Origin: Hormiphora californensis | Lineage: Eukaryota > Animalia > Ctenophora | DNA: 64,000 bases | Assembly (NCBI GenBank): GCA_020137815.1 | Contig: CM035354.1 | Span: 62,001-126,000 of the forward strand | Reading direction: 5' to 3' | Shown: positions 4,761 through 59,400 of the stretch, one piece after another | How the letters are laid out: every line of letters begins with the position of its first letter | Numbering within the stretch: position 1 is the first letter of the stretch | Program-made: the position numbers and the translations under genes | The notes under the pieces: generated by a model | Told to the model about the DNA's origin: nothing | The model's input: only the letters and a program-made list of their open reading frames with translations | The model's database searches: none

Positions 4761-25322
<20,562 letters not shown>

Positions 25323-25536: not shown

Positions 25537-26508
25537 TTAAGCAGGGTTTGTCTCTCTCAGCAGTTTAGTATTTTCACCCTCTCGGTGGATAACTGGTTTC
25601 TGTACAAGTTGGAATGGATCAGTGAAGCCCTTATTCCGGACACCCCTTGTCCAGTACCAGTACTGGCTGCGGGCCATAGTTTCCTTCTTCTCGTCATATC
25701 CGGCCCTTTTAAAGTTACCGTGCATTCCACGACCGGAGTCGTCATACCTATTCAAATCCCAAAACGCTTTAACAAACATCTGCTCATAAACCCTTTTGGT
25801 GATGGGCGTTGTTTTCCTTGACCCCAACTTTTTAACAATGTCCTGGTACTGCCCCTCCGTTATCAGACCTTTCTCTCTGTTTCGCCGGTCTTCGCTCAGC
25901 ACTTTCTCATAATCCGTCCTGTTTCGTTCCTTTGCATAATCAGAAACAAGGTCCATCGGAATTTGACGTTGTGTTGGCTGTTTGAAAGTTTTATTGGAGT
26001 TCAAAACGGGGCCTATTGCAGCCTTTTTTGCACCTGGAATCACTTCCTGAAGGTACTGGTTTTGGGCGGCAGTTGCGTATACACGGGGGTGGACTGGGAA
26101 TACTCCGCTTGCACCTAACAACTTCCAAACAGGTATGGTAGGTTCGGCACCATCAGCGATATACTGACGGATCTTGGAGATATCTAGCAAACAGATTCGA
26201 GTGCCTTTCTCATTTACACAGTCGTCGAAAAACCCAACTTCTTCGATCACAGATGATTCCCGTTCATCGTCCAGTTTTGTTCTCTGTCCAGGACCGTGAC
26301 AGGCAACAATTTTGTAGCCTAGAAAATGACGGAAATTGAGTTAGCGATTAACACATGATACGGTTATGGAAAATGAGATCGAGTTGTTCCAAATACCTGG
26401 GCGATGGCGGCAAGTAGGACGGACCAAACGGAGTGTAACCTGGTTCAGAAGGTCTCCAGTTTTAGTGCTGATAAACACATCACGCCATTTACTCGGTGGG
26501 ACCCTCAT
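25537..26508 (-). CDS. MRPS16: Mitochondrial ribosomal protein bS16m with long C-terminal extension (2 exons: 26508-26397 and 26318-25537; 297 aa)
   Basis: The spliced protein VTLRLVRPTCRHRPGYKIVACH...IEEVGFFDDCVNEKGTRICLLDISKIRQYIADGAEPTIPVWKLLGASGVFPVHP matches the bS16m pattern (IRL..G..NRPFYRIVAAH...VEQLGSYDP..N..GEKLV.LN.DRIRHWIG.GA...KLLGLAGFFPLHP). The GT-AG intron keeps the frame. Confidence 0.88.
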
Positions 26509-27278: not shown

Positions 27279-28482
27279 TCATTTGATAGATAGAAGTGTT
27301 CGTTGTCTAGAGACGGGGGCCTCCTCACTTCGCACCACCCTCATTATTGACTTGATGGTCCTTTGTTCCTGAGACAGTGACAGTTGCTGCAGTAGGTTCT
27401 TGTGGGTAGCACTCAACATGCCACACCCTATCCACTCTTCATAATCCTGGTGAGAGGGAGGGGTTACTGGGGGGTGAGGGTGGGGGTGGGGGTGGAGGGT
27501 GGTTGGGGGGGTGGAGGGTGGGGTAGCACTCAACATGCCACACCCTATCCACTCTTCATAATCCTGGTGAGACGTAATGAGTGAGTTGTCAGTGGGGGGG
27601 GGGGTCATACAGGGTATATTGTAGATACCAACCTTTATCATTGTAACATTGCTCCACATAATTTTAGAGTGAATCATTTCTTGTAGTTTGTTGCTATGGC
27701 ACCAAATCACCATATCCACTTGGTTACCAATGTCCCTCACCTCACCCCCCCCCCCCTCACCCCCCTCACCCCCTCACCTCCCCCCTCCCCCTATCCCCCT
27801 CACCTCCCCCTCCCCCACCCTCTATAATACCTCACCCCCCCCCCTATGATATCTCACCTCTATCATCTGGAAAGGACTGAACATGGTTTTGTTTTGGTGG
27901 TTCACATTGGCCCCTGCCTCTATTAACAGTTGTGCAGCATGGAAGTTGTTACACCTCACAGCAGCAAAAAGAGGCGTCTCTCCATCCTCATTTTGTCCCT
28001 CAACATCTGCCCCACTCTCAAGAAGAAGTGTCAGCACTTCGCTGAACTTGGGATCCCGTGAAGCGTAGTGGAGTGGCTGTGCGAGGGAAAGAGACAGTTA
28101 ATTACCACGCTAGTAACACAGTAATTCACTAGTGCAGTGGCCACTGGCCACTACGGTCACATGGACGGTTAATTGTAGCCAGGTATTTCACGACGCAGAC
28201 CGATTGGCATTTTGGTACCTGGTTTCCTGATTTCGGGTTTCTGAAACAGGGATCCGTCCCGAGATTCAATAAGAATGTCACCGTTTCCTGAGGGTTTGTG
28301 TGGGACACTCTCTGGGCCAGTACATTTTCCAGAATCTTCTCTCCTTCCCCGGTTTTGAAGGCAAAACCATTCTTTAACAGCCACTCAGAACATCTGAAAA
28401 TGAGATTTAAAATTTAGTAGGTAAAAAGGAACCGATCAGTGTTGCATATGATTCAGAAAGGACTACAATAAATATCTACTCA

Positions 28483-28553
<71 letters not shown>

Positions 28554-31500
28554 GTTTGTATGCACTGAACGGAGCGATGCTTGTTGTAATATTCACCACT
28601 CGAAACTGCATATGACTCGGCTAGTTACAAGTGAACGCAGCTGATCAGGAGGGATCGAGATTCGAGAAGGAGAGATAGAGAAGGAAGGGGGGAGAGAGAG
28701 AGTTATACACGTACCGCTTAGTACATTGGGAATCATGCACATGTCATTGCCCTCATTGTAAAACAAGGGCTCTTATTTACTAAGCTTAAAGCTACCTACT
28801 TCCAATAGCCCGCCTCCGTAGATAGCCGCAACATTGAGACGACATTGGTAGATTCCTTCTCTAGCTCAGCCCTCAGCTGATCGCCTCCCACACTGAGAAT
28901 CAACTTGATGTAATCAGCTCTACCTGCAAAGAAGACATGTGTTAGGGTAAGGGCGGGTGGGGCGGCGGGTGGGTGGGGTGGAGGTGGGACACTGAATCTC
29001 CCACACTGAGAATCAACTTGATGTAATCTGCTCTACCTGCAAACAAGACATGTGTTAGGGTAAGGGCGGGTGGGGTGGGGTGGGATGGGGTGGGGCGGGG
29101 TGGACACTGAATCTCCCACACTGAGAATCAACTTGATGTAATCTGCTCTACCTGCAAACAAGACATGTGTTAGGGTAAGGGCGGTTGGGGTGGGGTGGGG
29201 TGGGGTGGGGTGGGGCGGGGTGGACACTGAATCTCCCACACTGAGAATCAACTTGATGTAATCTGCTCTACCTGCAAACAAGACATGTGTTAGGGTAAGG
29301 GCGGGTGGGGTGGGGTGGGACACTGAATCTCCCACACTGAGAATCAATTTGATGTAATCAGCTCTACCTGCAAACATGTGTTAGGGTAAGGGCGGGTGGG
29401 GCGGGTGGGGTGGGGTGGAGGGTGGGACACTGAATCTCCCACACTGAGAATCAACTTGATGTAATCTGCTCTACCTGCAAACATGTGTTAGGGTAAGGGC
29501 GGGTGGGGCGGGTGGGGTGGGGTGGAGGGTGGGACACTGAATCTCCCACACTGAGAATCAACTTGATGTAATCTGCTCTACCTGAAGGCATATGTTCAAG
29601 CTCCTATACTTTTCATATCTTCATCACATATCCCTCTCTTTCTCCCAGTGAGATGTATCAATCAGCTGACCTTACCTTGAAGGGCACAGCAGTGCACTGG
29701 CAGTAGTCCCTTTACATTTCCACCCACCCCACCCACCTCCCCCACCCCACCCACCCCACCCACCCCAATATTATTACCTTGAAGAGCACAGCAGTGCACT
29801 GGCAGTAGTCCCTTTACATTTCCACCCACCCCACCACCCCACCTCCCCCACCCCACCCACCCCACCCACCCCAATATTATTACCTTGAAGAGCACAGCAG
29901 TGCACTGGCAGTAGTCCCTTTACATTTCCACCCACCCCGCCACCCCACCCCACCCACCTCCCCCACCCCACCCACCCCACCCACCCACCCACCCCAATAT
30001 TATTACCTTGAAGAGCACAGCAGTGCACTGGCAGTAGTCCCTTTACATTTCCACCCACCCCACCCCACCCACCTCCCCCACCCCACCCACCTCCCCCACC
30101 CCACCCACCCCAATATTATTACCTTGAAGAGCACAGCAGTGCACTGGCAGTAGTCCCTTTACATTTCCACCCACCCCGCCACCCCACCCCACCCACCTCC
30201 CCCACCCCACCCACCCCACCCCACCCACCCCAATATTATTACCTTGAAGAGCACAGCAGTGCACTGGCAGTAGTCCCTGGCCCTTTACATTTCCACCCAC
30301 CCCACCCACCTCCCCCACCCCACCCCACCCCACCCACCCCAATATTATTACCTTGAAGAGCACAGCAATGTACTGGCAGTAGTCCCTTTACATTTCTCTG
30401 TGTTACTGATGCCCCGTTCTCCAGGAGCAACTCCCCAACATCTAACTGAATTGGCTGTCTTAGTGTTAGTCGATAAACCAGGCGTGCTCGTGAGACATGT
30501 GTGTGAACTGTGAAATCATATTGGCCCGACTCTTACCTGGTCATCTCCCTGGACGCTCTGTCCCAGACAGAGGGCATGAAGGGGTGTGTTACCCTCCACA
30601 TCTTTCCTAGTCACATCAGCACGGGCCTCAAGGAGGAGGGCAGCGGTTGGGAGATCGTGGGCGTAGTGCAGTGCCGTCCTACCTAGATTATCCAATACAT
30701 CAACAGCCAACCTGTATAATAGAGATTAGAGGGTTGTGTTGGGTGTGGGATGTATTGCAGTGAGCTAGTGCCATCTTCTGTACCCTTGTACTAACTGGGA
30801 GGGGTTGTGGAGGGAAAATGAGGGACCATAGAACATGTTCTAGTACTAACATGCTGAGCTATATTGGTGTACCAGGAAGTTGATAAAGCAATACAACTAA
30901 ACATATTGCACCCCCCACATTACTATTAATAAGGGACCAACTTAACAACACACACCTGTACTCACACAACTAGAGTACATAAGGGCTGGTGGCAACTACT
31001 AAATTACAGTCGGACCCCAAATTTTTAGGGTTTTGACTGTCGGTGAGAGAAGTGAGGGGGGAACCTGGCCAAAAGTGGGGGCCGCCCCCCCCCCCCCTCG
31101 CCCCCTCCTACACCCCTGTTCCTACCTGTGTTCCATTAATGTCTCCATGACAGGGACAAGGCCCAGTTTAGCTGCATGATGTAACAATGTCATACCACCC
31201 ACAACCCGGGACCGCAGGGAGGCAAAGGGTCGCTTGTTGTGGTGATGATTATTGACTGCCTCAACTAGCAGCTCCCCCTCCCCACTCGCTAGGGTCATGG
31301 AGAGCGCCTTGATTTGCTCGTATTTTATCAAGAGGAACTCCTGGAAGAAAAAAATGATGGTATAGAAGCGGTATAATAGAAGTTATAGAAGCGTATCTGC
31401 ATCCTAAAACAGTGCTTACAAAGCCAAATCTAAAGTTTGGAAATGGAAAATAATTGATGATGGCCTAATACCTTGATGGCGTCATTGCGAGATAACCTCA

Positions 31501-34500
31501 GTACATCCTGGTTGTTGATATTCCTTTGGTAGATGTCAGCTCCCCACTCAATTAGTAAACTACACATCTGTCTGTCCAGCGCCTCAACCTGTTATAGGGT
31601 ATTATCTGGTAGTCACACCTCTCATTACCCTGTATCTACTGAATCTACTGAATTAGAATATATTGGCCTACTATATATCTAGAGTCTATACTATATCTAG
31701 AGTCTATACCTAGATTCTATATCTAGATTCTATACTATATCTAGATTCTGGACACATACCGCAAGGAAGAGAGGTGACTGTAGGATTTTGTTCTGAATGT
31801 TCACGTCACCACCCGACTCCAGAAGGAAGAGGGCAATCTTGAAATTAGCTCCCTTCACGGCAAAATGCAGCGAGGTATTACCTGGAAGCAGTACACATTT
31901 GAAAATAAACAAGGAAATCAATCAATTTCCACATTTGATTTAATTTCCTTGTTTCCACATTTGAAGGGACAACAATTGAAACCCCCCCCCCCCCCATCAG
32001 GACACCCATCATCTTATCCTCTGCTTTAACTAAACAACTTTCATTAATTCATTATTCCTAACCTGTATCTCTATAGGTGGCATTGACGAAAGAGTGGTCG
32101 GATTTGTAGAACTTGATCAACTTTACAACCGTGTCCAACTGGCCATCCTTCACTGCCTTGAACAAGGCCCTCTCACACTGCGTCGAGGATCCCGGAAAAA
32201 CCTAAAATAATGCGGGTTTATCTTCAGATCTAACATGGCGGAAAGATTATTTTGAAGCAGCAGGGTCTCTGTTCTAAAACACAGTCTAGATATAGGCAAT
32301 ACCTGGTATAGTATTTTGGAGCCCGCCTTTAGCAGTTTATTCCGGGACGGACTCTCATAGTAAATTATATATTTGTCCTCGTAGTTCTCACTTTTTAACT
32401 GAAATGTATATTTTATTAATTTAATGAATTAGAATAATTTGACCTATTATATACTAATACAACACTGGAGTTATTGTACAACATGAATTTGATAACTGAA
32501 TCACAAAATCTCGTAGTCGTTCATTGTTCATATATGTATTCTTGAAATGTGAAACAATTTAATTTAAACAATTTGATTTAAAAGAATTACCTCAATTATT
32601 TCTCGTGTTGGAATATTTAAAATTTGTCGGACAGTTTGTGTTGAATTTTCAGCTCCCGAGAAATCATCAATGAACTCGTTACTTTTAATGTCGAACAGCA
32701 CCAGCTTCCTTTCAGGGGAGACTACCTCCTTGCAGTTACTGGTGTAGAATGCCACTCCTGGAGATGAAGTAGTGGAGATATTATTTTAATAGTTGATAGA
32801 AGTTTATGGACAACTGAGACAATTATTTTATTCCAGGAAATAAATAAATCACACGACGGTTTCGTCGAACATCGACATCATCAGGCTGCTAAAAATAAGG
32901 TCACATTAATTAATGTCTAATATCTAAAATACACGAAATAGGAACTATACAATATATACATCACACGCAAACTAGGAATCAGAAAATCAGATACTGTATC
33001 AGATAATAAATTGTTCGATCTTTTCTCCCTTTTCTCGTTTGTTAATGCTAGGTTTAAGAGATTTGATTAGGATCGCCTCCGTGACTTTTCGTCTGACTGG
33101 CTGGTCCAAGCCAGTTGCCAATATGTCAAACTCTAAATCAGGGGGTTCTCCATTGTGTTGTGATTGGTAGTGTGCTGCAAGTGCTTCGTTAGGGTAGATA
33201 TTGGGCGATTTCGCTGCCAATCTGTGCTCCTTGAAACGCTCACGGCACGGTCTAGCCGTCTCACCCACATATATTTCATTACATAATTTACACACTATCT
33301 TGTATACCACTCCCTTGACAGTACAATCCAAAGTGGGATGGGTCATGAGGGGGCATACAAGACAGTTAGTAATATGACAGTGTGTTCTGTCGTGCGGTCT
33401 CGATTTGCAAAACAGGTTTCTCAACTTGGTACCTGGTGTAAACACAACTCGGATGGGAAGAGTGTGTGACCGTATGAATGAAATTACAAACTCAGAAAAT
33501 GATTCACTAATATAGGGAAGTTTAAGTATCGTGGAGTGCTCACGAGATGTGGAAATCGACATAAGGCGGCGCTCGGAAATTTGTCTAGGATCTGGGTACC
33601 CGTTATTCATCAACAGCTTATCAACCATACCCATCGAGTGCTCCTCGTGGGTAGCATTCGATGAGCAGGTAGCAGCTGTTCGGTAGAAGTTCTTGATAGT
33701 ATTAATCTTCACACCTTCAGGGTGATGACTCTTTGAATGTAGGGTTATGGGTTTCTTCTGAGGTTTACGATAATATCGGTGTTCTACAATACCCTCATCA
33801 GATACCCGCAACTCTGCATCCAAAAACGGTACCCAATCTCCCTTCTCCGGGTAATCTACTTCCCACTGTAGGAGCTGATCGGGGTCCTCCTTAGCAATAC
33901 CTGCCACCAATTCTCTCGCTTCCACCTCAGATTTTGCAAACGAAGCAGTATCGTCTACATATCTTCCGTAGAATGTGAGACGGAGGTCAGTGTATATACT
34001 AGCTCTCTCAAACATATACACACGAATGATTGCTGCTAGGGGCGAGGGTTTCGATCCCATGAACAGACCGACAAGTTGTTTATACAGCTTGTTGTCGTAC
34101 ACGAAATACGAATTCTCAAGTATGTGGGTGAGACGGCTAGACCGTGCCGTGAGCGTTTCAAGGAGCACAGATTGGCAGCGAAATCGCCCAATATCTACCC
34201 TAACGAAGCACTTGCAGCACACTACCAATCACAACACAATGGAGAACCCCCTGATTTAGAGTTTGACATATTGGCAACTGGCTTGGACCAGCCAGTCAGA
34301 CGAAAAGTCACGGAGGCGATCCTAATCAAATCTCTTAAACCTAGCATTAACAAACGAGAAGAGGGAGAAAAGATCGAACAATTTATTATCTGATACAGTA
34401 TCTGATTTTCTGATTCCTAGTTTGCGTGTGATGTATATATTGTATAGTTCCTATTTCGTGTATTTTAGATATTAGACATTAATTAATGTGACCTTATTTT

Positions 34501-37500
34501 TAGCAGCCTGATGATGTCGATGTTCGACGAAACCGTCGTGTGATTTATTTATTTCCTGGAATAAAATAATTGTCTCAGTTGTCCATAAACTTCTATCAAC
34601 TATTGAAGATGAGACTCATATCAAGCGTGGCAACACATGAACTTTATAACTTTAATTTCCCCCGGACGTTATTCGCCACTGCTAAGGAATATTTGGCGTT
34701 TGGTGAGAAGCTCAAGGTCACTGAGCAGCGGTTGAACTTCCTGCACCGATGTAAACAGCAGCGTTTAGTTCCAGACTTCATTTCCAACAGTTTCACCATC
34801 CGCCTTAATATATTTCCGATTAACTCGCCTCCTTCTGTGGAATTGTACATTAATAGACTACACCGTATTGCTTTGAATCAGAACATTAATCATTGTTACA
34901 GCCTTATCAGAGATTATAAACAACAGATTACCCGCCTTGGGAGTTCACTGTCAACCTGTTATCATTTCCCTGCTCTCTATGCTCTATTCGTTTGGAACAA
35001 TCAAGAGACGAAGTTGGAGTCGAAAGAGAGGTTGATACGGAAGACTGAATCCCTGCGAAAATCCAGGTGCACCAGAGACCAGGTAACGTCCGATCCTGAA
35101 GCCACTTGTTTTGTTCCCGATCCACCCAGCACCAAAGTTTCATCTATAGGTACTCCCCTATCAACAGAGGAAACTGAGCTATTGGCACTGGGTCCCAATT
35201 TCGCTCTCATGCCGAAAATAAATGAGCAGCTGAAACAGACTGTCAAGACCAACATCGCTCAAGCTGCCTATGGTATGAGATGGAGGAGTTTTATGGAAAG
35301 GCCAGCGGACCCCTTAACTAATCCGGAGAACAACACACCCCTGGAGAACCAAGATGTTGAACAGCAAAAGAGGGTCATTACACCTTTCCACCGCCGTTAC
35401 GCATCCGCCCCTCCCACGCAAGACTTACAACTGGAACATGACCTCCGCCAGCTCCAGCAAGTGATCCTGACTCGCTTGGAAACCACCAAATCCAACTCCA
35501 ACATCACACCCTCCCAACGCGACGGACTCCGATCTCTACTGAAGAGGAAAGATGATCTGCACATCTCTGTCTCGGACAAGGGGGGTGAATTCGTTGTGAT
35601 AGACAAGCAGATTCAGAAAAGTATTACAGAGCACCATATTGACTCTATGTGTGAAAAGGGTGTGTATAAGTTTTTGCCTCCAAGCCGAGGTACCCGAACT
35701 ATTGCTAAACCGACTGAATATTCCTACAGTAATTCTATTGCTTCTTCACGTAATAATTTAGAAAGTGAAGCTAATACCCTTTGGTCGACTATTTGTGAGA
35801 AAGTGAGTTTGGATAGAAAATTCTCAGATTTATTTATTTCCCGTGATTCTACTCTGCCAACCATGTATATATTATATTGATTAAAACTCACAAGATGAAT
35901 GTCGAATATTTTAACCCTGATATTGATTTGAGTGAACCGAATTTGAGTGATTTTAAGGTGCGTCCTATAGTGAGTTGTTGCGGGTCACCTACTGAGAAGT
36001 TGGCATGGGTAGTCACAACCATCCTGTCACCTTTACTCAAGCACGTGCCCTCACACCTCTCTAACATCCATAACCACCTAACTGCACTCCATGACATACC
36101 ACCTTCCCAACTTCAGGAGATGTCATTTTTCTCGGCGATGTGTTTCACTTTACACCACATCACCACAGGCGAGCGTGAAGTCATTAGTTAATTCTCTCTC
36201 GAACACTGGGAGGAGTTAGATACTTGGGGGATCTCTGCTACTGATATACACCTGATGTTGAATGTGGTACTTGAGAATTCGTATTTCGTGTACGACAACA
36301 AGCTGTATAAAACTTGTCGGTCTGTTCATGGGATCGAAACCCTCGCCCCTAGCGCAATCATTCGTGTGTATATGTTTGAGAGAGCTAGTATATACACTAC
36401 CTCCGTCTCACATTCTACGAGATATGTAGACGATACTGCTTCGTTTGCAAATCTGAGGTGGAAGCGAGAGAATTGGTGGCAGGTATTGCTAAGGAGGACC
36501 CCGATCAGCTCCTACAGTGGGAAGTAGTATAACCCGGAGAAGGGAGATTGGGTACCGTTTTTGGATGCAGAGTTGCGGTATCTGATGAGGGATTGTAGAA
36601 CACCATATTATCGTAAACCTCGAAGAAACCCATAACCCTACATTCAAAGAGTCATCACCCTGAAGGTGTGAAGATTAATACTATCAGAACTTCTACCGAA
36701 CAGCTGCTACCTGCTCATCGAATGCTACCCACGAGGAGCACTCGATGGTTATGGTTGATAAGCTGTTGATGAATAACGGGTACCAGATCCTAGACAAATT
36801 TCCGAGCGCCGCCTTATGTCGATTCCACATCTCGTGAGCACTCCACGATACTTAAACTTCCCTATATTAGTGAATCATTTTCTGAGTTTGTAATTTCATT
36901 CATACGGTCACACACTCTTCCCATCCGAGTTGTGTTTACACCAGGTACCAAGTTGAGAAACCTGTTTTGCAAATCGAGACCGCACGACAGAACACACTGT
37001 CATATTACTAACTGTCTTGTATGCCCCCTCATGACCCATCCCACTTTGGATTGTACTGTCAAGGGAGTGGTATACAAGATAGTGTGTAAATTATGTAATG
37101 AAATATATGTGGGTGAGACGGCTAGACCGTGCCGTGAGCGTTTCAAGGAGCACAGATTGGCAGCGAAATCGCCCAATATCTACCCTAACGAAGCACTTGC
37201 AGCACACTACCAATCACAACACAATGGAGAACCCCCTGATTTAGAGTTTGACATATTGGCAACTGGCTTGGACCAGCCAGTCAGACGAAAAGTCACGGAG
37301 GCGATCCTAATCAAATCTCTTAAACCTAGCATTAACAAACGAGAAGAGGGAGAAAAGATCGAACAATTTATTATCTGATACAGTATCTGATTTTCTGATT
37401 CCTAGTTTGCGTGTGATGTATATATTGTATAGTTCCTATTTCGTGTATTTTAGATATTAGACATTAATTAATGTGACCTTATTTTTAGCAGCCTGATGAT

Positions 37501-40500
37501 GTCGATGTTCGACGAAACCGTCGTGTGATTTATTTATTTCCTGGAATAAAATAATTGTCTCAGTTGTCCATAAACTTCTATCAACTATTGAAGATGAGAC
37601 TCATATCAAGCGTGGCAACACATGAACTTTATTACTTTAATACTTTAGTAGCGGGTATCAATTAGTGGAGATATAATAGTAGCCAGTGGATGAACTAGCG
37701 TAGTGTAACACAATCTCAATATCCTGAGGAATTCAACACGTACCTGTTGTGAGGTTAAGATTGATGTACATAAACTTCACCAGACTGTTAATAGTAGTAG
37801 AACGTGTTACATCAGCCACCTCAAATCTGTCATCAATTTTACGAGATATCTCATCATTCACCTGGCCCAAGATATGAAATTAATATGAAGTGAGCTATGA
37901 AGTGAGATATGAAGTGAGCTATGAAGTGGAGAGAGAGAGAGAGTGGATGATGACAATATTTGCATTGCTCGACCCTGTTTCACGGCAAAAAAGATAATAT
38001 ATGAAGAGGAGAAAGTATTCAAGATGTTTTCAAGACAGGGAAGAGAAAGGGAGAAAGGAATGAAAACAATCCCTACATGGTTCTGCAGGATGTTTAGTTT
38101 TTTGACCCACTGTCTCATTTCAGTGCTCTTGTGAAGTCCTTCCAGCTTAGATAACTCTTTCCCTATTACCTCTATCTTTAGTGTGAGCTGGAGGGGGAGT
38201 TAAATCATCAATAATTATCCAGGATAGGGCTGTTTAGTGCGGAACAGCGATACCTGATCCCAGGTACATAATATATCAAACAGGATGCAAACCTCTTTCT
38301 TTTTTCTGATAATTTCCAAAGATTGTGCGATGTTGGGAAGTTCTTCCAGTGCTTTCGTGTTCGTCACTAGCTTGTCTTGAAGGGTATCTGAACAAATAAA
38401 TATTAAAAAGTTGGACTAGTTGGCTCTAGACTAGGTAGAGCTATAAATTTTAAGAATTTCATAAGAAGTTGAACTTTTAAAGTTCTTGGCACTTCTTGTT
38501 TCATAATTATCTGCAACGCACCTATTCTGTCCACTACTGTAGTAGCTTGTTGGAATGCTAAACCCTTCATTAGGATGGCTACAAAGAAGGCACTCATCGC
38601 CATAATATCACAATGTACCAGATCCTCGGAGTCAATCTTGTGCTCAGTATCCAACATTTCACCAATAAAATCTAGTGCCAAGTTAACCGTCCACCTAGCG
38701 AATGGAAAATAAAATCTAGTGCCAAGTTAACCGTCCACCTAGCGAATGGAAAATAAAATCTAGTGCCAAGTTAACCGTCCACCTAGTGAGGGGAAATAAA
38801 ATCTAGTGCCAAGTTGACTGTCCACCTATAGTGAGGGGGGAAATAAAATCTAGTGCCAAGTTAACCGTCCACCTAGTGAGGGGGGAAATAAAATCTAGTG
38901 CCAAGTTAACCGTCCACCTAGTGTGTATGGAAAATAAAATCTAGTGCCAAGTTAACCGTCCACCTAGTGAATGGAAAATAAAATCTAGTGCCAAGTTAAC
39001 CGTCCACCTAGTGAATGGAAAATAAAATCTAGTGCCAAGTTTACCGTCCACCTAGTGAATGGAAAATAAAATCTAGTGCCAAGTTTACCGTCCACCTAGT
39101 GGATAGAAAGGATGATATATTGGAGTGGTTATGTTCAGCTGGTAGCTATCATTAGTGTAAAACTCTACCTGTCATTGAGGAGGACTTCTGGCGTGAAGGA
39201 TGAGGGAAAGAAGGCATTGACAATCCTGAGGAGTATTCGTGTATCAGAGAGATCCTCCAAATCAGTTAAAGGGGGACATCTCCTACCTCCGGGAGAGCCG
39301 TCTATCTGGGCTTGTATTGACTGAACAGAGAGAGAGAGGAGTTTAGTACGTATGCAATGCAGGCTGTTCAAACTGTGACAAAACTAAATATCTCAAGGAA
39401 CGTCTCAAGGAACGTATCACAAAATAGAAGAGACTATGAAAACCCAAGATCACCAGTTGGTCAGTTAGATTTTAGTGTTGATGGACAATGACATATTGTA
39501 TCTTAAAGTAACAATTTTAGGGCTCTTTCTTTGTTTTTCCGAAGGTCGAACAGTATTGTATGACTGTCTAGAAGAAGCGTTTCCATTTTCTCTTACCTCT
39601 AAAATCATTGCCTCTGGCTTCATTTTCTTCTTTTTTTCTTTTAACTTTCTCGCTCGCTCCTGCAAAGTGTTGGACGTTGGTTAATGGAATAAAAGGTGGC
39701 CTAAAGTGCTAACTATACGGCTTACGATGTAATTGTAAATAAATAACGATTATCTTACGCTATTTTTAAGAGCCTTGTAAGATGTTTTACCATCATCGCC
39801 GTCCTTTTTATTAGGCGATGTTATCCAGGAGTAGCTCTGGTTCAGAAGCTGTGACTCATTTTCAATCATTTGACGTGTTGTGTCCCACGTCTCACGGACA
39901 TCATATTGTACCAAGTTCCATAGAAACCATGAAATCTGGAAGGTGGGCCGTGGGGGGTTAGTATAGGGGGGTACTAGCATTTGTATTGATGTGACCTGGG
40001 GGATAAAAAAGGTGTTGCTAAAAGGTTCAGGAGAATGGTGTGATCAAGAGGTTGCTCGACCATCATTTCGTGAGGGTTAGAACAAACCAATCAAGAGGAT
40101 CTAGGAAGAAGGGTCTTTGGCAGATCTTCTAAGAAGAAGGGGAAGAAGGCGAGACATAAAGAATGTGAATCTACCTCTTCTGGATCGCCTATAACTAGCC
40201 TATCTCTATCGTAAACATAGTTGTACGGCAGTATATCGTAGTCTTGAAGTTCGGCAATTATCCACTCTACTCTAGTTTTCTTCTGCTGGTCGGTTAGATC
40301 ATCGCACGATTGTACTTTCTTCATCTCCCGACCTGATAATATGAACTAGTATGAGCGACCTGATAATATGAACAGTATGAGCGACCTGATAATATGAACA
40401 GTATGAGCGACCTGATAATATGAACAGTATGAGCGACCTGATAATATGAACAGTATGAGCGACCTGATAATATGAACAGTATGAGCGACCTGATAATATG

Positions 40501-43332
40501 AACAGTATGAGCGACCTGATAATATGAACAGTATGAGCGACCTGATAATATGAACAGTATGAGCGACCTGATAATATGAACAGTATGAGCGACCTGATAA
40601 TATGAACAGTATGAGCGACCTGATAATATGAACAGTATGAGCGACCTGATAATATGAACAGTAATGAGCGACCTGATAATATGAACAGTATGAGCGACCT
40701 GATAATATGAACAGTATGAGCGACCTGATAATATGAACAGTATGAGCGACCTGATAATATGAACAGTATGAGCGACCTGATAATATGAACAGTATGAGCG
40801 ACCTGATAATATGAACAGTATGAGCGACCTGATAATATGAACAGTATGAGCGACCTGATAATATGAACAGTATGAGCGACCTGATAATATGAACAGTATG
40901 AGCGACCTGATAATATGAACAGTATGAGCGACCTGATAATATGAACAGTATGAGCGACCTGATAATATGAACAGTATGAGCGACCTGATAATATGAACAG
41001 TATGAGCGACCTGATAATATGAACAGTAATGAGCGACCTGATAATATGAACAGTATGAGCGACCTGATAATATGAACAGTATGAGCGACCTGATAATATG
41101 AACAGTATGAGCGACCTGATAATATGAACAGTATGAGCGACCTGATATATGAACAGTATGAGCGACCTGATAATATGAACAGTATGAGCGACCTGATAAT
41201 ATGAACAGTATGAGCGACCTGATAATATGAACAGTATGAGCGACCTGATAATATGAACAGTATGAGCGACCTGATAATATGACGTAGGAGCGACTGATAA
41301 TATGAACAGTATGAGCGACCTGATAATATGAACAGTATGAGCGACCTGATAATATGAACAGTATGAGCGACCTGATAATATGAACAGTAATGAGCGACCT
41401 GATAATATGAACAGTAATGAGCGAGACCTGATAATTGAACAGTATGAGCGACCTGATAATATGAACAGTATGAGCGACCTGATAATATGAACAGTATGAG
41501 CGACCTGATAATATGAACAGTATGAGCGACCTGATAATATGAACAGTATGAGCGACCTGATAATATGAACAGTATGAGCGACCTGATAATATGAACAGTA
41601 TGAGCGACCTGATAATATGAACAGTATGAGCGACCTGATAATATGAACAGTATGAGCGACCTGATAATATGAACAGTATGAGCGACCTGATAATATGAAC
41701 AGTATGAGCGACCTGATAATATGAACAGTATGAGCGACCTGATAATATGAACAGTATGAGCGACCTGATAATATGAACAGTATGAGCGACCTGATAATAT
41801 GAACAGTATGAGCGACCTGATAATATGAACAGTATGAGCGACCTGATAATATGAACAGTATGAGCGACCTGATAATATGAACAGTATGAGCGACCTGATA
41901 ATATGAACAGTATGAGCGACCTGATAATATGAACAGTATGAGCGACCTGATAATATGAACAGTATGAGCGACCTGATAATATGAACAGTATGAGCGACCT
42001 GATAATATGAACAGTATGAGCGACCTGATAATATGAACAGTATGAGCGACCTGATAATATGAACAGTATGAGCGACCTGATAATATGAACAGTATGAGCG
42101 ACCTGATAATATGAACAGTATGAGCGACCTGATAATATGAACAGTATGAGCGACCTGATAATATGAACAGTATGAGCGACCTGATAATATGAACAGTATG
42201 AGCGACCTGATAATATGAACAGTATGAGCGACCTGATAATATGAACAGTATGAGCGACCTGATAATATGAACAGTATGAGCGACCTGATAATATGAACAG
42301 TATGAGCGACCTGATAATATGAACAGTATGAGCGACCTGATAATATGAACAGTATGAGCGACCTGATAATATGAACAGTATGAGCGACCTGATAATATGA
42401 ACAGTATGAGCGACCTGATAATATGAACAGTATGAGCGACCTGATAATATGAACAGTATGAGCGACCTGATAATATGAACAGTATGAGCGACCTGATAAT
42501 ATGAACAGTATGAGCGACCTGATAATATGAACAGTATGAGCGACCTGATAATATGAACAGTATGAGCGACCTGATAATATGAACAGTATGAGCGACCTGA
42601 TAATATGAACAGTATGAGCGACCTGATAATATGAACAGTATGAGCCGACCTGATAATATGAACAGTATGAGCGACCTGATAATATGAACAGTATGAGCGA
42701 CCTGATAATATGAACAGTATGAGCGACCTGATAATATGAACAGTATGAGCGACCTGATAATATGAACAGTATGAGCGACCTGATAATATGAACAGTATGA
42801 GCGACCTGATAATATGAACAGTATGAAGCGACCTGATAATATGAACAGTATGAGCGACCTGATAATATGGAACAGTATGAGCGACCTGATAATATGAACA
42901 GATGAGCGACCTGATAATATGAACAGTATGAGCGACCTGATAATATGAACAGTATGAGCGGAACCTGATAAATGAAAGTATGAGCGACCGATAATGGAAC
43001 AGTATGAGCGACCTGATAATATGAACAGTATGAGCGACCTGATCGTAGATTCAAAGATTCAAATTAGAAAGTATGAGGGGTATAAATATTCAAAGATTCA
43101 AAGACTCAAAGATTCAAATTAGAAAGTATGAGCGGTATAAAACCAAGTGTATTGTTTTTGTAAAATACTAAAATACAAACGGGGTAGACATACCGAGAAA
43201 TGATTCAGTAAGGTATTTTAAGGTAAACCCCTTAAACAGATCTTTGTAAATATTCTTTGTGCTGAATCCATATGATGCTAGGCGAATATTGAGCCAGAAA
43301 TCAAAACATCGTATCCGTGTGGCTTGCTGCAT
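27279..43332 (-). CDS. Multi-exon protein with two calponin-homology-like domains, coiled coil and C-terminal ankyrin repeats
   Basis: Exon 43332-43194 (FWLNIRLASYGFSTKNIYKDLFKGFTLKYLTESFL) joins 40332 (GREMKKV..KTRVEWII) to give CH1. DLEDLSDTRILLRIVNAF..NDR|WTVNLALDF..IDSEDLV gives CH2. Ankyrin motifs GNTSLHFA, GMTLLHHAA, GRTALHYA, GNTPLH, GLLPVHCCA, GETPLFAA. Phases checked at most junctions, including across the Penelope-containing intron (37744 to 32757). Confidence 0.8.
28884..29590 (-). repeat. Array of 3' splice site + first ~40 nt of ankyrin exon (6 extra copies)
   Basis: CAG|GTAGAGC(A/T)GATTACATCAAGTTGATTCTCAGTGTGGGAG, exon start at 28923 (true copy) and at 29036, 29151, 29271, 29367, 29474, 29581, separated by C-rich spacers. 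Confidence 0.95.
29671..30396 (-). repeat. Array of last ~45 nt of ankyrin exon + 5' splice site (6 extra copies)
   Basis: GAAATGTAAAGGGACTACTGCCAGTGCACTGCTGTGCTCTTCAAG|GTAA, GT at 30351 (true copy) and at 30242, 30122, 30006, 29883, 29777, 29675, separated by GGGGT-rich spacers. Confidence 0.95.
32999..34122 (-). CDS. Penelope RT C-terminal half + GIY-YIG endonuclease (intact frame, 5'-truncated inverted copy)
   Basis: ORF 32999-34228 is open from LENSYFVY to IEQFII*. Residues encoded beyond 34122 are antisense pLTR. Confidence 0.9.
34500..34545 (+). ncRNA. Candidate minimal hammerhead ribozyme in Penelope pLTR (copies at 37493-37522 plus, 32855-32884 minus)
   Basis: CTGATGA-t-GTCGA(tgt)TCGAC-GAAAC-c-GTC has the core boxes and a 5-bp stem II. 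PLE pLTRs are known to carry minimal hammerheads. Stem I pairing is weak. Confidence 0.6.
34609..37378 (+). pseudogene. Penelope polyprotein ORF, frameshifted in this assembly
   Basis: ORF pieces 34570-35880, 35877-36191, 36255-36527 and 36932-37378. Many 1-nt deletions relative to the inverted copy between ~36300 and 36830. Confidence 0.85.
38664..39102 (-). repeat. ~44-bp array of 3' splice site + exon start (9 extra copies)
   Basis: CTAG|GTGGACGGTTAACTTGGCACTAGATTTTATT repeated. True exon starts at 38694. The array fills ~85% of intron 38695-39168. Confidence 0.95.
40329..43043 (-). repeat. 26-bp satellite (~104 copies) whose unit is the 3' splice site + 4 exon nt
   Basis: Transcript-strand unit TCATACTGTTCATATTATCAG|GTCGC. 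The true junction is TCATATTATCAG|GTCGGGAGATG, exon start 40332. Confidence 0.97.
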
Positions 43333-48239: not shown

Positions 48240-49638
48240 ATGAATCTGTCGGGATGGAGTGAGGATGTATGTGAGGTCCAGTTCACTGACTCCACAGACC
48301 ACTTTGACCCCTCACCTCTTGTAAGGGTTGTCCTCACATTCTACACCTCCCTTCTATCCATACTGGGCGTACTGGGCAATGGACTTGTATTCTACGCTTC
48401 ATTCAATGCTAACCACTTTGATATCGACAAGGTTTGGGAAATTTTAGCTTATTTTGGTGACATCCAATTAACACCCAATTATACTTCTCTCAACAACTGT
48501 GTTTTAACCTGTCTCTCCCTAGTAACCTCCTAGTAACCAGGTAACTCTCTCTCCCTAGTAACCAGTAACTCTCTCTCCCTAGTAACCTCCTAGTAACCAG
48601 TAACTCTCCCTAGTAACCAGTAACTCTCTCTCTCCCTAGTAACCTCCTAGTAACCAGGTAACTCTCTCTCCCCAGGTGACCCTGGTAATGATAAGACAAT
48701 TAGCGGCTGCGGATTTCCTCTATACCACCACCACTACATTCACAATGGCTATATCCCACTTCTCCCAGGGGTGGGTGCTAGGACCCCACCTCTGTTTTGT
48801 ATTATCCCACCTCAGGTGGGTGGCTGGTACTGCTGGCCACCTTCTAATTCTCCTCATCTCATTCCACCGAACCTGGACTATATTCTTTGCTATCACTAGG
48901 CGGATCATGTTACGACACATTTGGGTAGCGTCCCTACTAACCTGGGTGGTATCCCCTGTACCCACTATCTGTGCCATCTACTCAGATGCAGGATCATGTT
49001 TTGATTGGACCACTATGACGTGTGAGTCTACATTCTATGATATGGTGGAACTAGCCCCTCTCCTCAGGTTCCTGTCCATCACCTTCCTATTCATTCCTGT
49101 GATCCTAGGTTGTGTTGTTGAACTGTATCATGTTGGTTATATCCCAGAAGAATCTAGCAGGACATGAGGTCAACCTGAGGGCCCTCAAGACAGTATTCTG
49201 CATTTGTGGTTTGTTCATCCTCTCCATCCTCCCCTACAACATCGCAATCTTCATGAGATCCCAATCAGTTAGTCAGGGTAATGGTGGTAAAATATCCATG
49301 GGATACTCATCTCTTCTACCACTATGCGTATATTCTGAACTCGGCAGGGAACCCCATTCTGTACACTAACACTAATAGAAAGTTTAGAGGGCTGGTTACT
49401 GAAGTGTCTAGGGGTGAGATGGGTGTGTTGGAGGGGGTCACGTGATAACCAAATAAGGGCAGTGAGCAACTCTAATAGCAACAATAAAAGGTTTATAGCT
49501 ACTTCAGATGTGATTATGACATCTACTGCTGCTGAACCTGATCCTGCACCCTCCCCAATTGATATAATAGCTGGGCATCTTTCCCCTTTTCTACCAAGAA
49601 CAAATGGATCGAGGAGATGTGATCAAACCTCCAATTAA
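48240..49638 (+). CDS. Rhodopsin-like (class A) 7TM GPCR; frameshifted here (pseudogene or assembly error)
   Basis: Exon 48240-48431 has TM1 LGVLGN. The exon from 48676 has TM2 LAAADFL, WVLGPHLC, TM3 ISFHRTW, TM4 W, TM6 LPY, and in another frame TM7 ILNSAGNPILY..NRKFR. Frame changes near 49108, ~49300 and probably ~49390. Confidence 0.85.
48513..48680 (+). repeat. Intronic array of acceptor-like units (CTCTCTCCCTAG-TAACC) before the GPCR exon 2 acceptor
   Basis: About 5 copies of CTCTCCCTAGTAACC precede the true CTCTCTCTCCCCAG|GTGACC at 48675/48676. Confidence 0.85.
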
Positions 49639-50486: not shown

Positions 50487-53400
50487 TCACATTTCCTCTA
50501 CGTAGTTATAAGGGAAGAGGCCCTTCTTGCCTCTCAGTTCCCCTGTCCACCAACCCGAATCCTCCTTCTTCAGCAAGTTAATAACATCACCAGTCACCAG
50601 CGTCAGCTCCTCAGCGTCACCTGCCTGGTAGTCATATATCGCCCTGACTTGGGGGTATTTCTTGGAGGGGGGAGGGGGTGGTGGGGGTGCTGACCTCTTC
50701 ATGCTCATATTGGGAGAGGGGACCCTCATGAAACTCTGATTAGTACCCTCCCCTGTGGTCAAGTTCCTGGCACTCTTCTTTGCACCCATGGAGTGCATGC
50801 TAGGTCGTGTCATGTGACTGTTAGATCGGCCCATGCTCTGACGGGTTGAGGCAGCAGTAGGGTTCTGATAGGCCCGGGATTGGGCTGTTCGGGCAGGTTT
50901 CTTGGCAGCAAATGTACCTTGTCTCCTGGAGACATCGCCAGGTCTCGTGTCTCGTGGGAGACCGTTACCAATGGCAACCGTCAGAGTCTTACCCTTTGGA
51001 GTGAGGATGGGGAAGTCGGAGGACCCTGACACAAAGTTGATGATCCGTTCATCTCCCATTAGAGATCCAATCCAGGCCTTCATCTTGTTGTCATCCTTCT
51101 TGGCTGTATAGGTTATTGTATCAGAGAAGTTGATGTTGAGGTTGCGGTTAGTCTGGGCCAGGAACCGGTCAGTTATAACGGTGAGGAACTCTGTTTTAAA
51201 CACTGTTTCAATGATGCTAGGGAACGCCTCCTTGACTCTAATCACCATAAAGTCATCTTGTCTAGTTGACAGATCAATCGACTCAATGGATCCCATAGTT
51301 ATCTTTCTCATCACTTTCTCGACTACCTGCCCTGCCTGGGGACCCTTCCTGATCCTCTCTCGTCCTATCAGATACAGGTTCTGGGCAGACAGCAGCATAT
51401 CCCTCTTCTGCACCTTGTATTTCCTGTCGTACTTGTTAACACAACACGCAAACTCGATGTGCTCTCTCTTTCCCACCAGGGCTCTGAGTCCAGCGTTCTG
51501 TCCGAACCCAATGTAGTCCCCTACAAAGCACCTCCTGATACTGCCGTGCCTTCTCATCTTCTTATTGAACAGGATATCAGTTGCTTTCTCTCTTATCTCT
51601 GCCATCTCTCTCCTCCTAACATACCTCCTCCAGGCAGTCTGAATGGTCCTGGCATACCCATCAAACTTCCTCTCCCTAGTCTCCTCCAACAAGAACAGGC
51701 TCTCTGGAGCCTTGATGAAGATCTTTGTGGTGCCCATCTGCCATTGGGAGGGTTCCATGGCAACTGAGTCCATAATGATCTTAATCCCCCTCGCTGGATC
51801 TCCTGACCACCTTGGCCAGGTCTCCTTTGTACAGATCGCATACCTCTGTAGGAACTTGGTGAAGGGCCGACGGTAGGCAAATCCAGCTCTCCGGACCCTG
51901 ATGTTCTCTTTCAGACCGAGGTACTCAACTTGATGTTTCCCTCTCAACTCCTCCCAGTCTCGGGGCAGTTTTGTCTCATTCGGCTTGATGCACCTATGTA
52001 AGAGGGGAGAACTGTCAGAACATTGGCATGTCGGGGGAAGATGGTGATCGAAATAGAATTCTGTTTTAGAAATATCTTCTCTCACAACACCCCAGTATTA
52101 CCAAACCCTCACAGAGCGTTGTGAGCCAGACAATACTGTAACCATATTACCTGATGTAGTGTGGAGTGCACAACATGAGCCTGTTATTACCTGATGTAGT
52201 GTGGAGTGCACAGCATGAGTCGGTTCACAAGGTCATTAGCTTGTGTTCTAATCTTGAACCCAGCGGTACTGGGTTTACCTCTCTTCTCCTTGAGGGCCGC
52301 CTAGATAACAGAATAACATGTCATTAGTAGAGGAGGACGGGGGTCATTAGAACATGACGTTAGATATAACACAACCCACGCACACTTTAAACCCCATACT
52401 GCCCAGTAAACAACTCCTAGTCTAGGTAGCTACCCTATGATAGGCCATACTGCCCAATTAACTACTGCCTCCCCCCCCCCCCATTCTGCCCCCAACTTCA
52501 TCTACTGTAGATTCTACTCACCAGGTTTTCAGGAAAGAGTGACCGGATGAAAGTGTTGGAAGTAGTCTGCATCATCTCTAGCACATCATTGGAGAGAATG
52601 TCCTTGTTCCTCTCACAGAATCCATCAACTGTATATTCTACCTGTAATGATTGGATAATATATACTGAGATACTGAGATATACTGAGATTCTACCTATCG
52701 GATAATGTGGATATAATTCAAATAGATCAGGTTTCATCCTGCACTGTTTCGACCTCACATCCCATCTGACATTTCTTTCCTTACTCAACAACCCATCTCT
52801 TTCCTTACTCAACAACCCATCTCTTTCCTTACTCAACAACCTCTCTCACCCTTCCTTACTCAACAACCTCTCTCACCCTTCCTTACTCAACAACCTCTCT
52901 CACCCTTCCTTACTCAACAACCTCTCTCACCCTTCTTACTCGGCATGCTCTAACTCTTTTTCTCACACGCCTTAGCACATTTTGATTTTGTACAAGTGTG
53001 CCGCACCCAATTAGTGCAAACAGCTAACTACAAACTACTAAGTGATATTTCTGTGTATTTCTAGTGTGAGGCATGTTTTTTAACTGTGCAATGAGGCTAA
53101 CTTTTGAGCAATATTAGAGACACATGCATCTTAAATTATCTAGGATGCACGATTAAATGTTGTAAAATTACTTCCTCTCTGCCTAATGTTTGTTGTTGGT
53201 AAACTTACCTTTCCTGCATAATGCACGATGATGAATCCTTTACTGTAGTTTTGGTAGTGTTGGTTGCTGCTAACGGCACCGTATAGTTTCTGGGGGGAGG
53301 GGGGGGGGAATTGTTATACAGTCGGACCCCGATCTAGGGGCCCCAGATTTAGAGGCACCCCGATTTAGGGACAGGATGTTTTTCCCCCGATATAGGAAAT

Positions 53401-56400: not shown

Positions 56401-59400
56401 GTCCTTACCTCACCCTCACCCTCGCCATACTACACTATGAATTGTCAAGTATCTGATGGCGTAGCCTGCTATTCCAATTCGTTTTAGGTGATCTATCCGT
56501 CTCCAGACAAGTGCTGCAGCGCTTTTCCGTTCTCAAAAGACAGAAGATAAGAGGTGACTGGTGAGACTGAGAGGTGACTGGTGAGACTGAGAGAGGTTGC
56601 AGGATGAAACTCCAGCTGGTACCACAGGGAGTGTTGCGCGCCGCGCACACCGAGTGTTGTAGTGAGCAGGTGCGGGTTCTTTCAATACAAGAAACATCCC
56701 GCGCCCTCCGTCTATCTGACAACACTTTCTGGTTCCTAGACCACCACTTAGTAAATAGGTAGAGGGGCGAAACAGACAAACAGACCCAACAAACGGATGT
56801 AGAATCAAGCCATCCAACTAACCTTCGACTCGATAAGGTCGCATACACATTTGTTGTTGAAATAATCAATAGGTTTCCAAGCGATCCCCTCTTCTACGTA
56901 TTCGTCCTGAAATTAGAAAATTATAAACCAACAAAGTGAGTGCACATATGTCACATAATGTATGCATGATAAGATAATGGGCGACATAAAATGAAGGAAA
57001 GAAATCATAGAAAGAGTTGTTGATATAACATATGAAAATAGAAGTCTGACACACGAAGTAAGTTGATACAGGCGTCATGACTCATGCCCCCTCTCTGATT
57101 AATCTCTCATCACTACCAACAGGTAAGACACCCCTCCCCTCGATATGTTACTCACCCCTACCCCCTGATCTACCACCAAAGAGAGCGTGTGAGCCACAAA
57201 ACCCATCCCTTTGTTATGTTCTAACCCTCCCAGGCGGGGCACGCAAAACAGGGTCTAGCTAGGCAACCACCCCTAACCCCGGGGAACAACAATATAATAA
57301 ATCACCTGTTCTGCTTTGAGAGTTAGCTCAATGAAAATCTGCTGCAGTTTCTCATTAACAAAGTTAATACAGAACTGCTCAAATCCGTTCACTTCAAATA
57401 TCTCAAAACCGTAGATATCCAACACGCCAATACAGAAGTCACTTTTAGCTTTTGCAAAGGCTTTGTTTATCGACTGAAAAGTTATAGGTTATTCTCCAGA
57501 TTTCCCGAGAAATAAGCTGTGATTTGATCATCTCTCACCAAGACAACCGGTGTGAGCCACAAAACCCTACTTACGTCTACAAGGTAGTCAAAGAGTCGGG
57601 AGTAGAGGGCCTTAGCGAGTGCGTCTCGTGTTGAAGTAGCCTGCTCTGGGTTCAGTGTTACATCAGTCACCTCTACCTTCCCTCCCCATCTGCTCTCCAT
57701 TACTCGATTAGTGAGAGCACGACATAGTGCACCCTCGTCCACTCCAAGCAGGTAGGCAGGGTAGGCCAGAACTGGGTGGGAAGACACATGTTAAGGGGGG
57801 AGGGGGAGGGGTGGAGGGGGGGTGGAGGGAGAGTTAGTGAGAGCACGACATAGTGCACCCTCGTCCACACCAAGCAGGTAGGCAGGGTAGGCCAGAACTG
57901 GGTGGGAAGACACATGTTAAGGGGGGAGGGGGAGGGGTGGGGAGGGTGGAGGGGAGGGGGAGTTAGTGAGAGCACGACATAGTGCACCCTCGTCCACTCC
58001 AAGCAGGTAGGCTGGGTAGGCCAGAACTGGGTGGGAAGACACATGTTAAGGTGGGAGGGGGGGGAGGGAGGAGGGGTGGAGGGGAGGGGAGGGGGTGGAG
58101 GGGGAGTTAGTGAGAGCACGACATAGTGCACCCTCGTCCACACCAAGCAGGTAGGCTGGGTAGGCCAGAACTGCAGTGGGAAGGAACATGTTAAAGGGGA
58201 GGTGGAGGTGGAGGGGAGGGGTAGAGGGGAGGGGAGGGGGTGGAGGGGGAGTTAGTGAGAGCACGACATAGTGCACCCTCGTCCACACCAAGCAGGTAGG
58301 CAGGGTAGGCCAGAACTGGGTGGGAAGACACATGTTAAGGGGGGAGGGGGAGGGGTGGAGGGGAGGGGGGGGGGAGGTGGAGGGGGAGTTAGTGAGAGCA
58401 CGACATAGTGCACCCTCGTCCACACCTAGCAGGTAGGCTGGGTAGGCCAGAACTGGGTGGGAAGACACATGTTAAGGGGGGGGGGGGGGAGGGGGTGGTA
58501 GAGGGGTGGTGGAGGGGGAGTTAGTGAGAGCACGACATAGTGCACCCTCGTCCACTCCAAGCAGGTAGGCTGGGTAGGCCAGAACTGGGTGGGAAGACAC
58601 ATGTTAAGGGGGGAGGGGGAGGGGGAGGGGAGGGGGGGGGGGAGGTGGAGGGGGAGTTAGTGAGAGCACGACATAGTGCACCCTCGTCCACTCCAAGCAG
58701 GGTGTGCGGACTCTAGTGCTACACTCTAAGTCTACAGTGGACTCTATATCTAAATTTAGATTTAGATAAAGAGTCCAAATAAGTCTAAACTCTAGGAGGA
58801 CTCTTTATCTAAAAAGTCTACACAGGGCGGACTCTTTATCTAAAAAGTCTAAACAAAGTGGACTCTATATGATGCATAAACTCTGGCCGGGGAGCTAGGT
58901 AGAAGCTAGCTGGGAGAAGGTAGCTGTAGTTTATCCGCCAGTGGCGGATAAACTGGTTTAAATCACGACGACGATCCTGAGGCGTAGCCGAGGGAGAGGC
59001 GGAGGGGTTTAAACCAATAACGTGCCATTGGTCAGAGTTTATGGGTTATATACCCTGCTTTAGTTGTTTGTTTCAAGTATTACACACTAACAAGAGAGAG
59101 AACACTAATCAAAACACACAAAGAGAACTGAGAAACAGTCAAAAACATCTCTCAATTGAGTGTATATTGTTTGGTAACAGTTACTAAGGAGAGAGAGAAA
59201 GAAATAACAAGATATGGGGCATGCCAGACATAACACAGAGGAATTGAGATAGTGAAACAAAAGGGGAGATAAAGAGAGAGAAATTGACGGAATGTGTTGT
59301 TTCTTTCTCTCCAATGCAGTGTGTAACTCTTGCAAACAGTGTTCCCTCTGTATTTCAGTAAGAACTGATCATTTACACACACTTTGAATGTAACATAGGA

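Follow-up and report, generated by a model that had tools for sequence, protein, structure and literature searches.

Tandem copies of exon-intron boundaries have been described in amphioxus as 'mirage' minisatellites, in Adh3, the globins BflGb6 and BflGb9, troponin C and PGBD5, and are reported to be without effect on the mRNA (PMC3087553, PMC3902484; statements on published systems refer throughout to the accessible parts of the sources). Their tandem units extend over the boundary and include the splice signal, and either boundary type can be copied. In the amphioxus accounts, the two boundary types are copied in different genes, or the repeats merely overlap 5′ and 3′ sites. A tested precedent for the choice among identical sites is intron 7 of human F7, in which a 37-bp VNTR supplies identical donors and the most upstream of them alone is used (PMC1557585). 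Repeats at exon-intron boundaries are also known from human paralogs (PMC2812944). In a further group of introns the ends are bridged by complementary repeats, (AC)m-(GT)n in zebrafish and (GGG)m-(CCC)n in human (PMC4691745). Finally, fungal stwintrons hold a complete spliceosomal intron within a larger intervening sequence (PMC8469720, PMC6616335), and in nested, intra- or recursive splicing inner sites can be used before the final join (dystrophin, PMC4829307; bioRxiv 10.1101/159350).

The window analyzed here is a stretch of 64,000 nucleotides from the ctenophore Hormiphora californensis (contig CM035354.1, positions 62,001 to 126,000), and positions are counted from its first letter. Three minus-strand genes were modeled by hand and give 59 introns in total: a myosin I gene, an ankyrin-repeat gene that hosts the intron under study (the focal intron), and a gene that we take to be KMT2-like from its domain motifs. 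Relatives of the host gene bear ankyrin repeats, and one of them has an additional calponin-homology domain. The myosin I model features 11 introns and an open frame of 954 aa, and aligns with the protein P0001 over both array-bearing junctions (75% identity overall); the myosin search found no close named relative. The KMT2-like model features 32 introns; no open frame results over the first five of them or over an internal stretch, and a few intron calls in it are less sure. The host gene and the focal intron are laid out as follows.

27279-39320, minus strand: host ankyrin-repeat gene as modeled, 17 exons and 16 introns, all GT..AG, open over 832 aa, 5′ end not fixed
30352-30445, minus strand: upstream coding exon of this gene, 94 nt, in the open 832-aa model with collinear relatives
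30396-30352, minus strand: last 45 nt of the upstream exon, template of the left copies
28924-30351, minus strand: working intron, 1428 nt, phase 1, at an AG/GT site, bounded by the only one of 49 site pairs that gives the full protein
29676-30351, minus strand: left array, six units of donor, 11-nt leader, G tract and exon-tail copy
30340-30293, 30231-30167, 30111-30051, 29995-29928, 29872-29822 and 29766-29720, minus strand: G tracts of the left array
29582-29675, minus strand: unique core with its own donor and acceptor, 94 nt, GT..AG
28924-29581, minus strand: right array, six units of exon-head copy, linker, C tract, branch-point-like motif and acceptor
29533-29497, 29426-29390, 29319-29299, 29223-29179, 29103-29064 and 28988-28951, minus strand: C tracts of the right array
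28800-28923, minus strand: downstream coding exon, 124 nt, starting with GT
28923-28885, minus strand: first 39 nt of the downstream exon, template of the right copies
30351, 30242, 30122, 30006, 29883, 29777 and 29675, minus strand: the seven donors
29582, 29475, 29368, 29272, 29152, 29037 and 28924, minus strand: the seven acceptors

Exon-edge copying in the focal intron is far above chance: its own 30-nt exon edges match it with scores of 50 and 55, against 21 and 19 for the best foreign edges from the other 58 introns. Each left unit measures 102-126 nt, of which 45 nt are exon tail (one copy with a 6-nt insertion), and the right units are 96-120 nt long, of which 39 nt are exon head. The G tracts measure 47-68 nt and the C tracts, which follow a short linker, 21-45 nt; the branch point of the right units is a putative one, read from the sequence. 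The arrangement of six left copies, a 94-nt core and six right copies, with seven donors and seven acceptors, had been proposed in a preliminary description of this DNA and was re-found at the same positions. That description did not mention that the spacers, G-rich on the left and C-rich on the right, are mutually complementary, nor that eight other introns of the window bear similar repeats.

Like the amphioxus mirages, the focal intron has tandem units that span the exon-intron boundary and keep the GT or AG, and these units have turned over, with two right units identical and silent variants common to several copies, a sign of homogenization. Unit sizes are 96-126 nt here and 10-160 bp in amphioxus (PMC3087553, PMC3902484). 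The focal intron differs from the described mirages in that both ends are amplified equally, in its complementary G/C spacers, which are absent from the core, and in its ctenophore host. With F7 intron 7 it shares identical, potentially functional donors after the true donor, but the human case is one-sided, mammalian, and without an acceptor array or an enclosed short intron. The sequence hallmarks of G/C-bridged introns (PMC4691745), G triplets directly downstream of the donor, C triplets directly upstream of the acceptor and predicted pairing across the intron, are present as well. Unlike in those introns, the pair is repeated six times, nested, and set inside exon-edge repeats, and its bridging role is a prediction. 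A literature search that included few subscription papers and no supplements turned up neither ctenophore mirages nor any two-sided array whose spacers are complementary, and the accessible part of the Hormiphora genome paper (PMC8527503) mentions neither mirages nor such arrays.

We consider it fairly probable that the focal intron carries two mirage arrays and that its outermost sites are joined in one step, with G/C bridging and the strongest outer acceptor probably helping. When all 49 donor-acceptor pairs were tried, the outermost pair alone gave the 832-aa frame, and the remaining 48 led to truncation at 635-715 aa. Three relatives from two distinct clusters (P0156, P0173, and P0149) align over the focal junction and are free of insertions. 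A predicted net product in which 30352 is joined to 28923 is thus well supported by reading frames and collinear relatives. The possibility that the copies are coding sequence, translated as repeats, was rejected, since every non-outermost pair runs into stops. One RNA run, X1, matched a small share of the window; its contigs reach the 3′ end of the host gene only, where they contain two joints, none of them over the focal intron. One of these, 27445-27857, belongs to the final intron of this gene, where the acceptor is duplicated and the outer copy is used, as the one-step reading would have it; the contig reports the net product only, and donor-like motifs lie inside that intron. A second run, X2, gave short low-complexity matches to the window only.

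Splice sites were scored with a matrix derived from the 58 non-focal introns of the window, and all seven donors and seven acceptors score inside the range of the window's real sites. The working (outermost) acceptor tops all seven (8.94 vs. 6.07-7.16), in favor of the one-step join. Against it stands the core, a complete short intron with the best of the seven donors, at the 91st percentile. Its donor scores 10.15 and the working donor 9.11, which bears out the preliminary description, where the core donor had been judged closer to consensus. The 59 introns have a median length of 190 nt, with four shorter than the core, and the pairing of splice sites across short introns is expected. The locus is a compact natural test of splice-site choice, in which one productive pair faces competition from twelve inner sites and a strong intron of 94 nt.

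Like a stwintron, the focal intron encloses a complete spliceosomal intron. Assignment to that class was nevertheless rejected, as the core lies more than 650 nt from both intact outer sites and interrupts no outer donor, branch point or acceptor. Two steps are therefore not obligatory, and a direct outer join gives the full frame. Inside-out or recursive splicing, which the preliminary description had put forward, is possible by sequence but is not needed, with the outer donor and acceptor intact. As in the nested and recursive systems, inner sites could be used before the final join, but here these sites are exon-edge copies. That nested splicing is the main path, with the core taken out first and then each shell in turn until the outermost pair is joined, seems quite unlikely to us. 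A shell on this path would consist of a donor, a G tract, joined exon-edge copies, a C tract and an acceptor (~209 nt for the innermost), and would be guided by its own G/C helix.

Folding predictions bear on both the nested path and the one-step join. In the predicted ensemble, the G and C tracts pair as six nested helices of 20-40 base pairs in strict mirror order, each running from ~11 nt past a donor to a point shortly ahead of a branch-point-like motif. The innermost shell, when freed of the core, is also predicted to form a long helix from 11 nt past the donor to just before the branch-point-like motif. These helices, the equal number of donors and acceptors (seven each), and the strength of the core donor all fit nested splicing. 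However, mirror pairing follows from the equal counts, since without knots six helices can form in no other order. Mirror partners also have no pairing advantage, with 41% of 720 permutations of the partners doing as well. When compared with shuffles of both tracts, four of the six G/C duplexes come out ahead and two do not, including the outermost (20% of shuffles as good). Furthermore, the helices face predicted competition from G-quadruplex folds (-908.6 vs. -787.2 kcal/mol), which also weighs against bridging in the one-step reading. The predicted end-to-end duplex of the focal intron, at -83.7 kcal/mol, is the strongest among the 59 introns.

Across all 59 introns, a G-rich start shows no correlation with a C-rich end (rho 0.05), and the excess of own-pair duplexes has p 0.02 with the focal intron and 0.12 without it. 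Introns with exon-edge copies have stronger end duplexes (p 0.012, or 0.032 without the focal intron), in a post hoc comparison in which such introns are longer too.

Exon-edge copies are found in 9 of the 59 introns, the focal one and eight others. An exon edge matches its own intron above any foreign edge in 12 introns, and the nine counted comprise eight at scores of at least 30 and one at 24 with a junction-anchored copy; three introns at scores 17-23 (donors 16098, 14995, and 8506) were dropped by eye. The eight others are listed here.

61766-63242, minus strand: myosin I intron with a 33-nt donor array, 36 copies detected
61629-57772 (57708-61341), minus strand: myosin I intron with eight acceptor and exon-head copies and C-rich spacers
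38664-39101, minus strand: nine acceptor copies, in the ankyrin-repeat gene
27404-27857, minus strand: last intron of the host gene, with a G-rich start and a single additional copy of acceptor plus exon head, its spacer C-rich
52145-52212, minus strand: one donor copy
20213-20334, minus strand: one acceptor copy
9744-9823, minus strand: one donor copy
5244-5350, minus strand: one acceptor copy

In the myosin acceptor array, a ~2.5-kb insertion interrupts one unit; it has inverted ends, is flanked by an 11-nt duplication and resembles a non-coding DNA transposon. The myosin intron with the donor array also has one or two decayed acceptor/exon-head copies near 61860-61790, and represents a second, lopsided two-sided case. 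The end duplex of the last intron of the host gene (-77.7) is the second strongest, and the top four end-to-end pairings of the 59 (donors 30351, 27857, 20955, and 5482) all belong to introns that bear acceptor copies. On a post hoc reading, bridging may be favored in introns with a decoy acceptor. On the plus strand, degenerate repeats with acceptor-like ends lie ahead of an apparent exon (48505-48672).

The arrays of 36 copies (myosin donor), 8 copies (myosin acceptor) and 9 copies (ankyrin-gene acceptor) are one-sided. Nested splicing cannot clear such arrays because they lack matching partner sites, and inner sites are therefore skippable without nesting, an argument against the nested path. 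The myosin frame is intact despite two arrays, and the host spliceosome thus appears able to choose the exon-adjacent site among many near-identical ones; site use in the myosin and KMT2-like arrays was inferred from reading frames and one protein relative. Together with the amphioxus mirages, which reportedly leave the mRNA undisturbed, and the use of the most upstream donor in F7, the spread of copies over 9 of 59 introns, one-sided arrays included, argues for one-step joining of the outermost sites. When the focal intron is left aside, donor copies occur in 3 of 58 introns and acceptor copies in 6 of 58 (one acceptor copy judged by eye), so that coincidence would yield ~0.3 two-sided cases per 59 introns. 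Many copies on both sides would be rarer still.

Acceptor arrays also bear on recursive (ratchet) splicing, which we regard as very unlikely. On this path, the first donor would be joined to an inner acceptor, and the GT-starting exon-head copy would then serve as a new donor for a later acceptor. The same GT-starting hexamer does follow all six inner acceptors, so that each has the AG/GT form, and this hexamer is the donor in 2 of the 58 other introns. However, the recreated donor is weak (24th percentile). In addition, acceptor arrays with non-GT exon heads exist in the window (in myosin, the last intron of the host gene, and the KMT2-like gene), and recursion is therefore not what makes such arrays tolerable.

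The differences between the exons and their copies point to the origin of the arrays. All five in the focal intron are third-position and synonymous, and over the 11 junction sides in the window 16 of 18 are synonymous, against 23% expected (29% transition-weighted; P about 2e-7). This count excludes the 6-nt insertion mentioned above for a left copy, as well as one myosin acceptor copy, decayed and missed by the scan, in which a deletion and a replacement change were seen by eye. As nearly all differences are silent and no other splice product is translatable, the intronic copies must derive from working alleles of the exons, which unequal crossing-over between exon and copy would give. Silent-only differences favor the one-step mirage reading and imply continuing sequence exchange between the intronic copies and the exon.

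The 94-nt core is likely the older intron, from which the working sites would have shifted outward. This had been suggested in the preliminary description, and it is made more plausible, though not proven, by the silent-only differences, by the innermost left copy being farthest from the exon (3 differences vs. 2), and by the likeness of the core's last bases to the outer acceptor. There, 11 of 13 bases are alike, a score reached by 1.3% of shuffled cores (p about 0.013). This likeness is weakened because one unrelated acceptor among the 58 others matches the unit acceptor as well as the core does over 15 positions (12 vs. 11). Between the spacers and the core, no likeness was found beyond the core's last bases.

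In the one-step mirage reading, each exon edge would have been duplicated into a short intron, the core, and would have gained a new G-rich or C-rich spacer. The units would then have multiplied via unequal crossing-over or slippage that involved the real exon too, leaving copies that are samples of working exon alleles and displacing the working splice sites outward. Since a full exon borders the first donor and the last acceptor only, those sites would be selected. The G tract past the first donor is predicted to form a duplex with the C tract upstream of the last branch point, so that the ends would approach each other and the decoys would be looped out. If the core were removed now and then, no harm would follow, since neither outer site takes part in that step.

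Independent arrays do not explain the equal counts (6 + 6), the complementary spacers, or a weak mirror likeness between the arms. An origin compatible with either splicing path is that shells were gained and lost as pairs, which we judge unlikely. In this scenario, gap repair would go out of register and match an inner copy pair to the real exon edges on the homologous chromosome; the complete intron would thereby be inserted within itself, and both arms would gain the same number of units. Beside the equal counts, unit likeness in the left and right arms correlates in mirror order (Mantel r 0.53, p 0.044, 720 permutations, two orientations tried) and not in the same order (r -0.24), and silent-only differences fit copying from working exons. 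However, ordinary unequal crossing-over likewise yields silent-only differences, and neighbors in any tandem array tend to be alike. In addition, the shells most alike on the left (2 and 4) are not those most alike on the right, and at the donor and acceptor rates given above coincidence would produce two-sided cases. A self-nesting intron that combines both ideas, copying itself into its own middle shell by shell and being peeled inside-out in up to seven steps, with a G/C helix per shell and the same exon-exon junction recreated each time, is decidedly improbable. If true, paired shells with inside-out splicing would constitute a new mode of intron growth and removal. On the most likely reading, the locus extends mirage repeats to a ctenophore, in a two-sided form with complementary spacers.

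An assembly artifact is extremely unlikely as the source of the arrays or of their exact copy numbers. G and C tracts are error-prone, and a search for DNA runs that contain this stretch found none, but the units vary in spacer length and in silent variants, and similar arrays occur in eight other introns, one of them split by the insertion with the 11-nt flanking duplication. Arrays of this kind can lead read mapping and gene prediction astray. When metagenomes were scanned for the orthologous locus, the outcome was one unrelated, bacterial-looking locus (L001).

Several other features were observed in the window. An ankyrin-gene intron contains a retroelement-like insertion at ~32800-37600, which we take to be Penelope-like; it matches GIY-YIG weakly (E 0.001) and includes pieces that are repeated and in part inverted. 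Long inverted arms at 16460-17800 and 19100-19700, in introns of the KMT2-like gene, resemble non-coding DNA transposons by eye. A 26-nt satellite occupies 40329-43043, with 104 copies that are 98% alike. Lastly, a single-exon frame of 260 aa (25540-26319, minus strand) has a weak ribosomal S16 match. The closest named relative of its protein comes from Pleurobrachia bachei, which makes a pleurobrachiid lineage likely; over 53% of the length of the window protein, the two are 86% identical.
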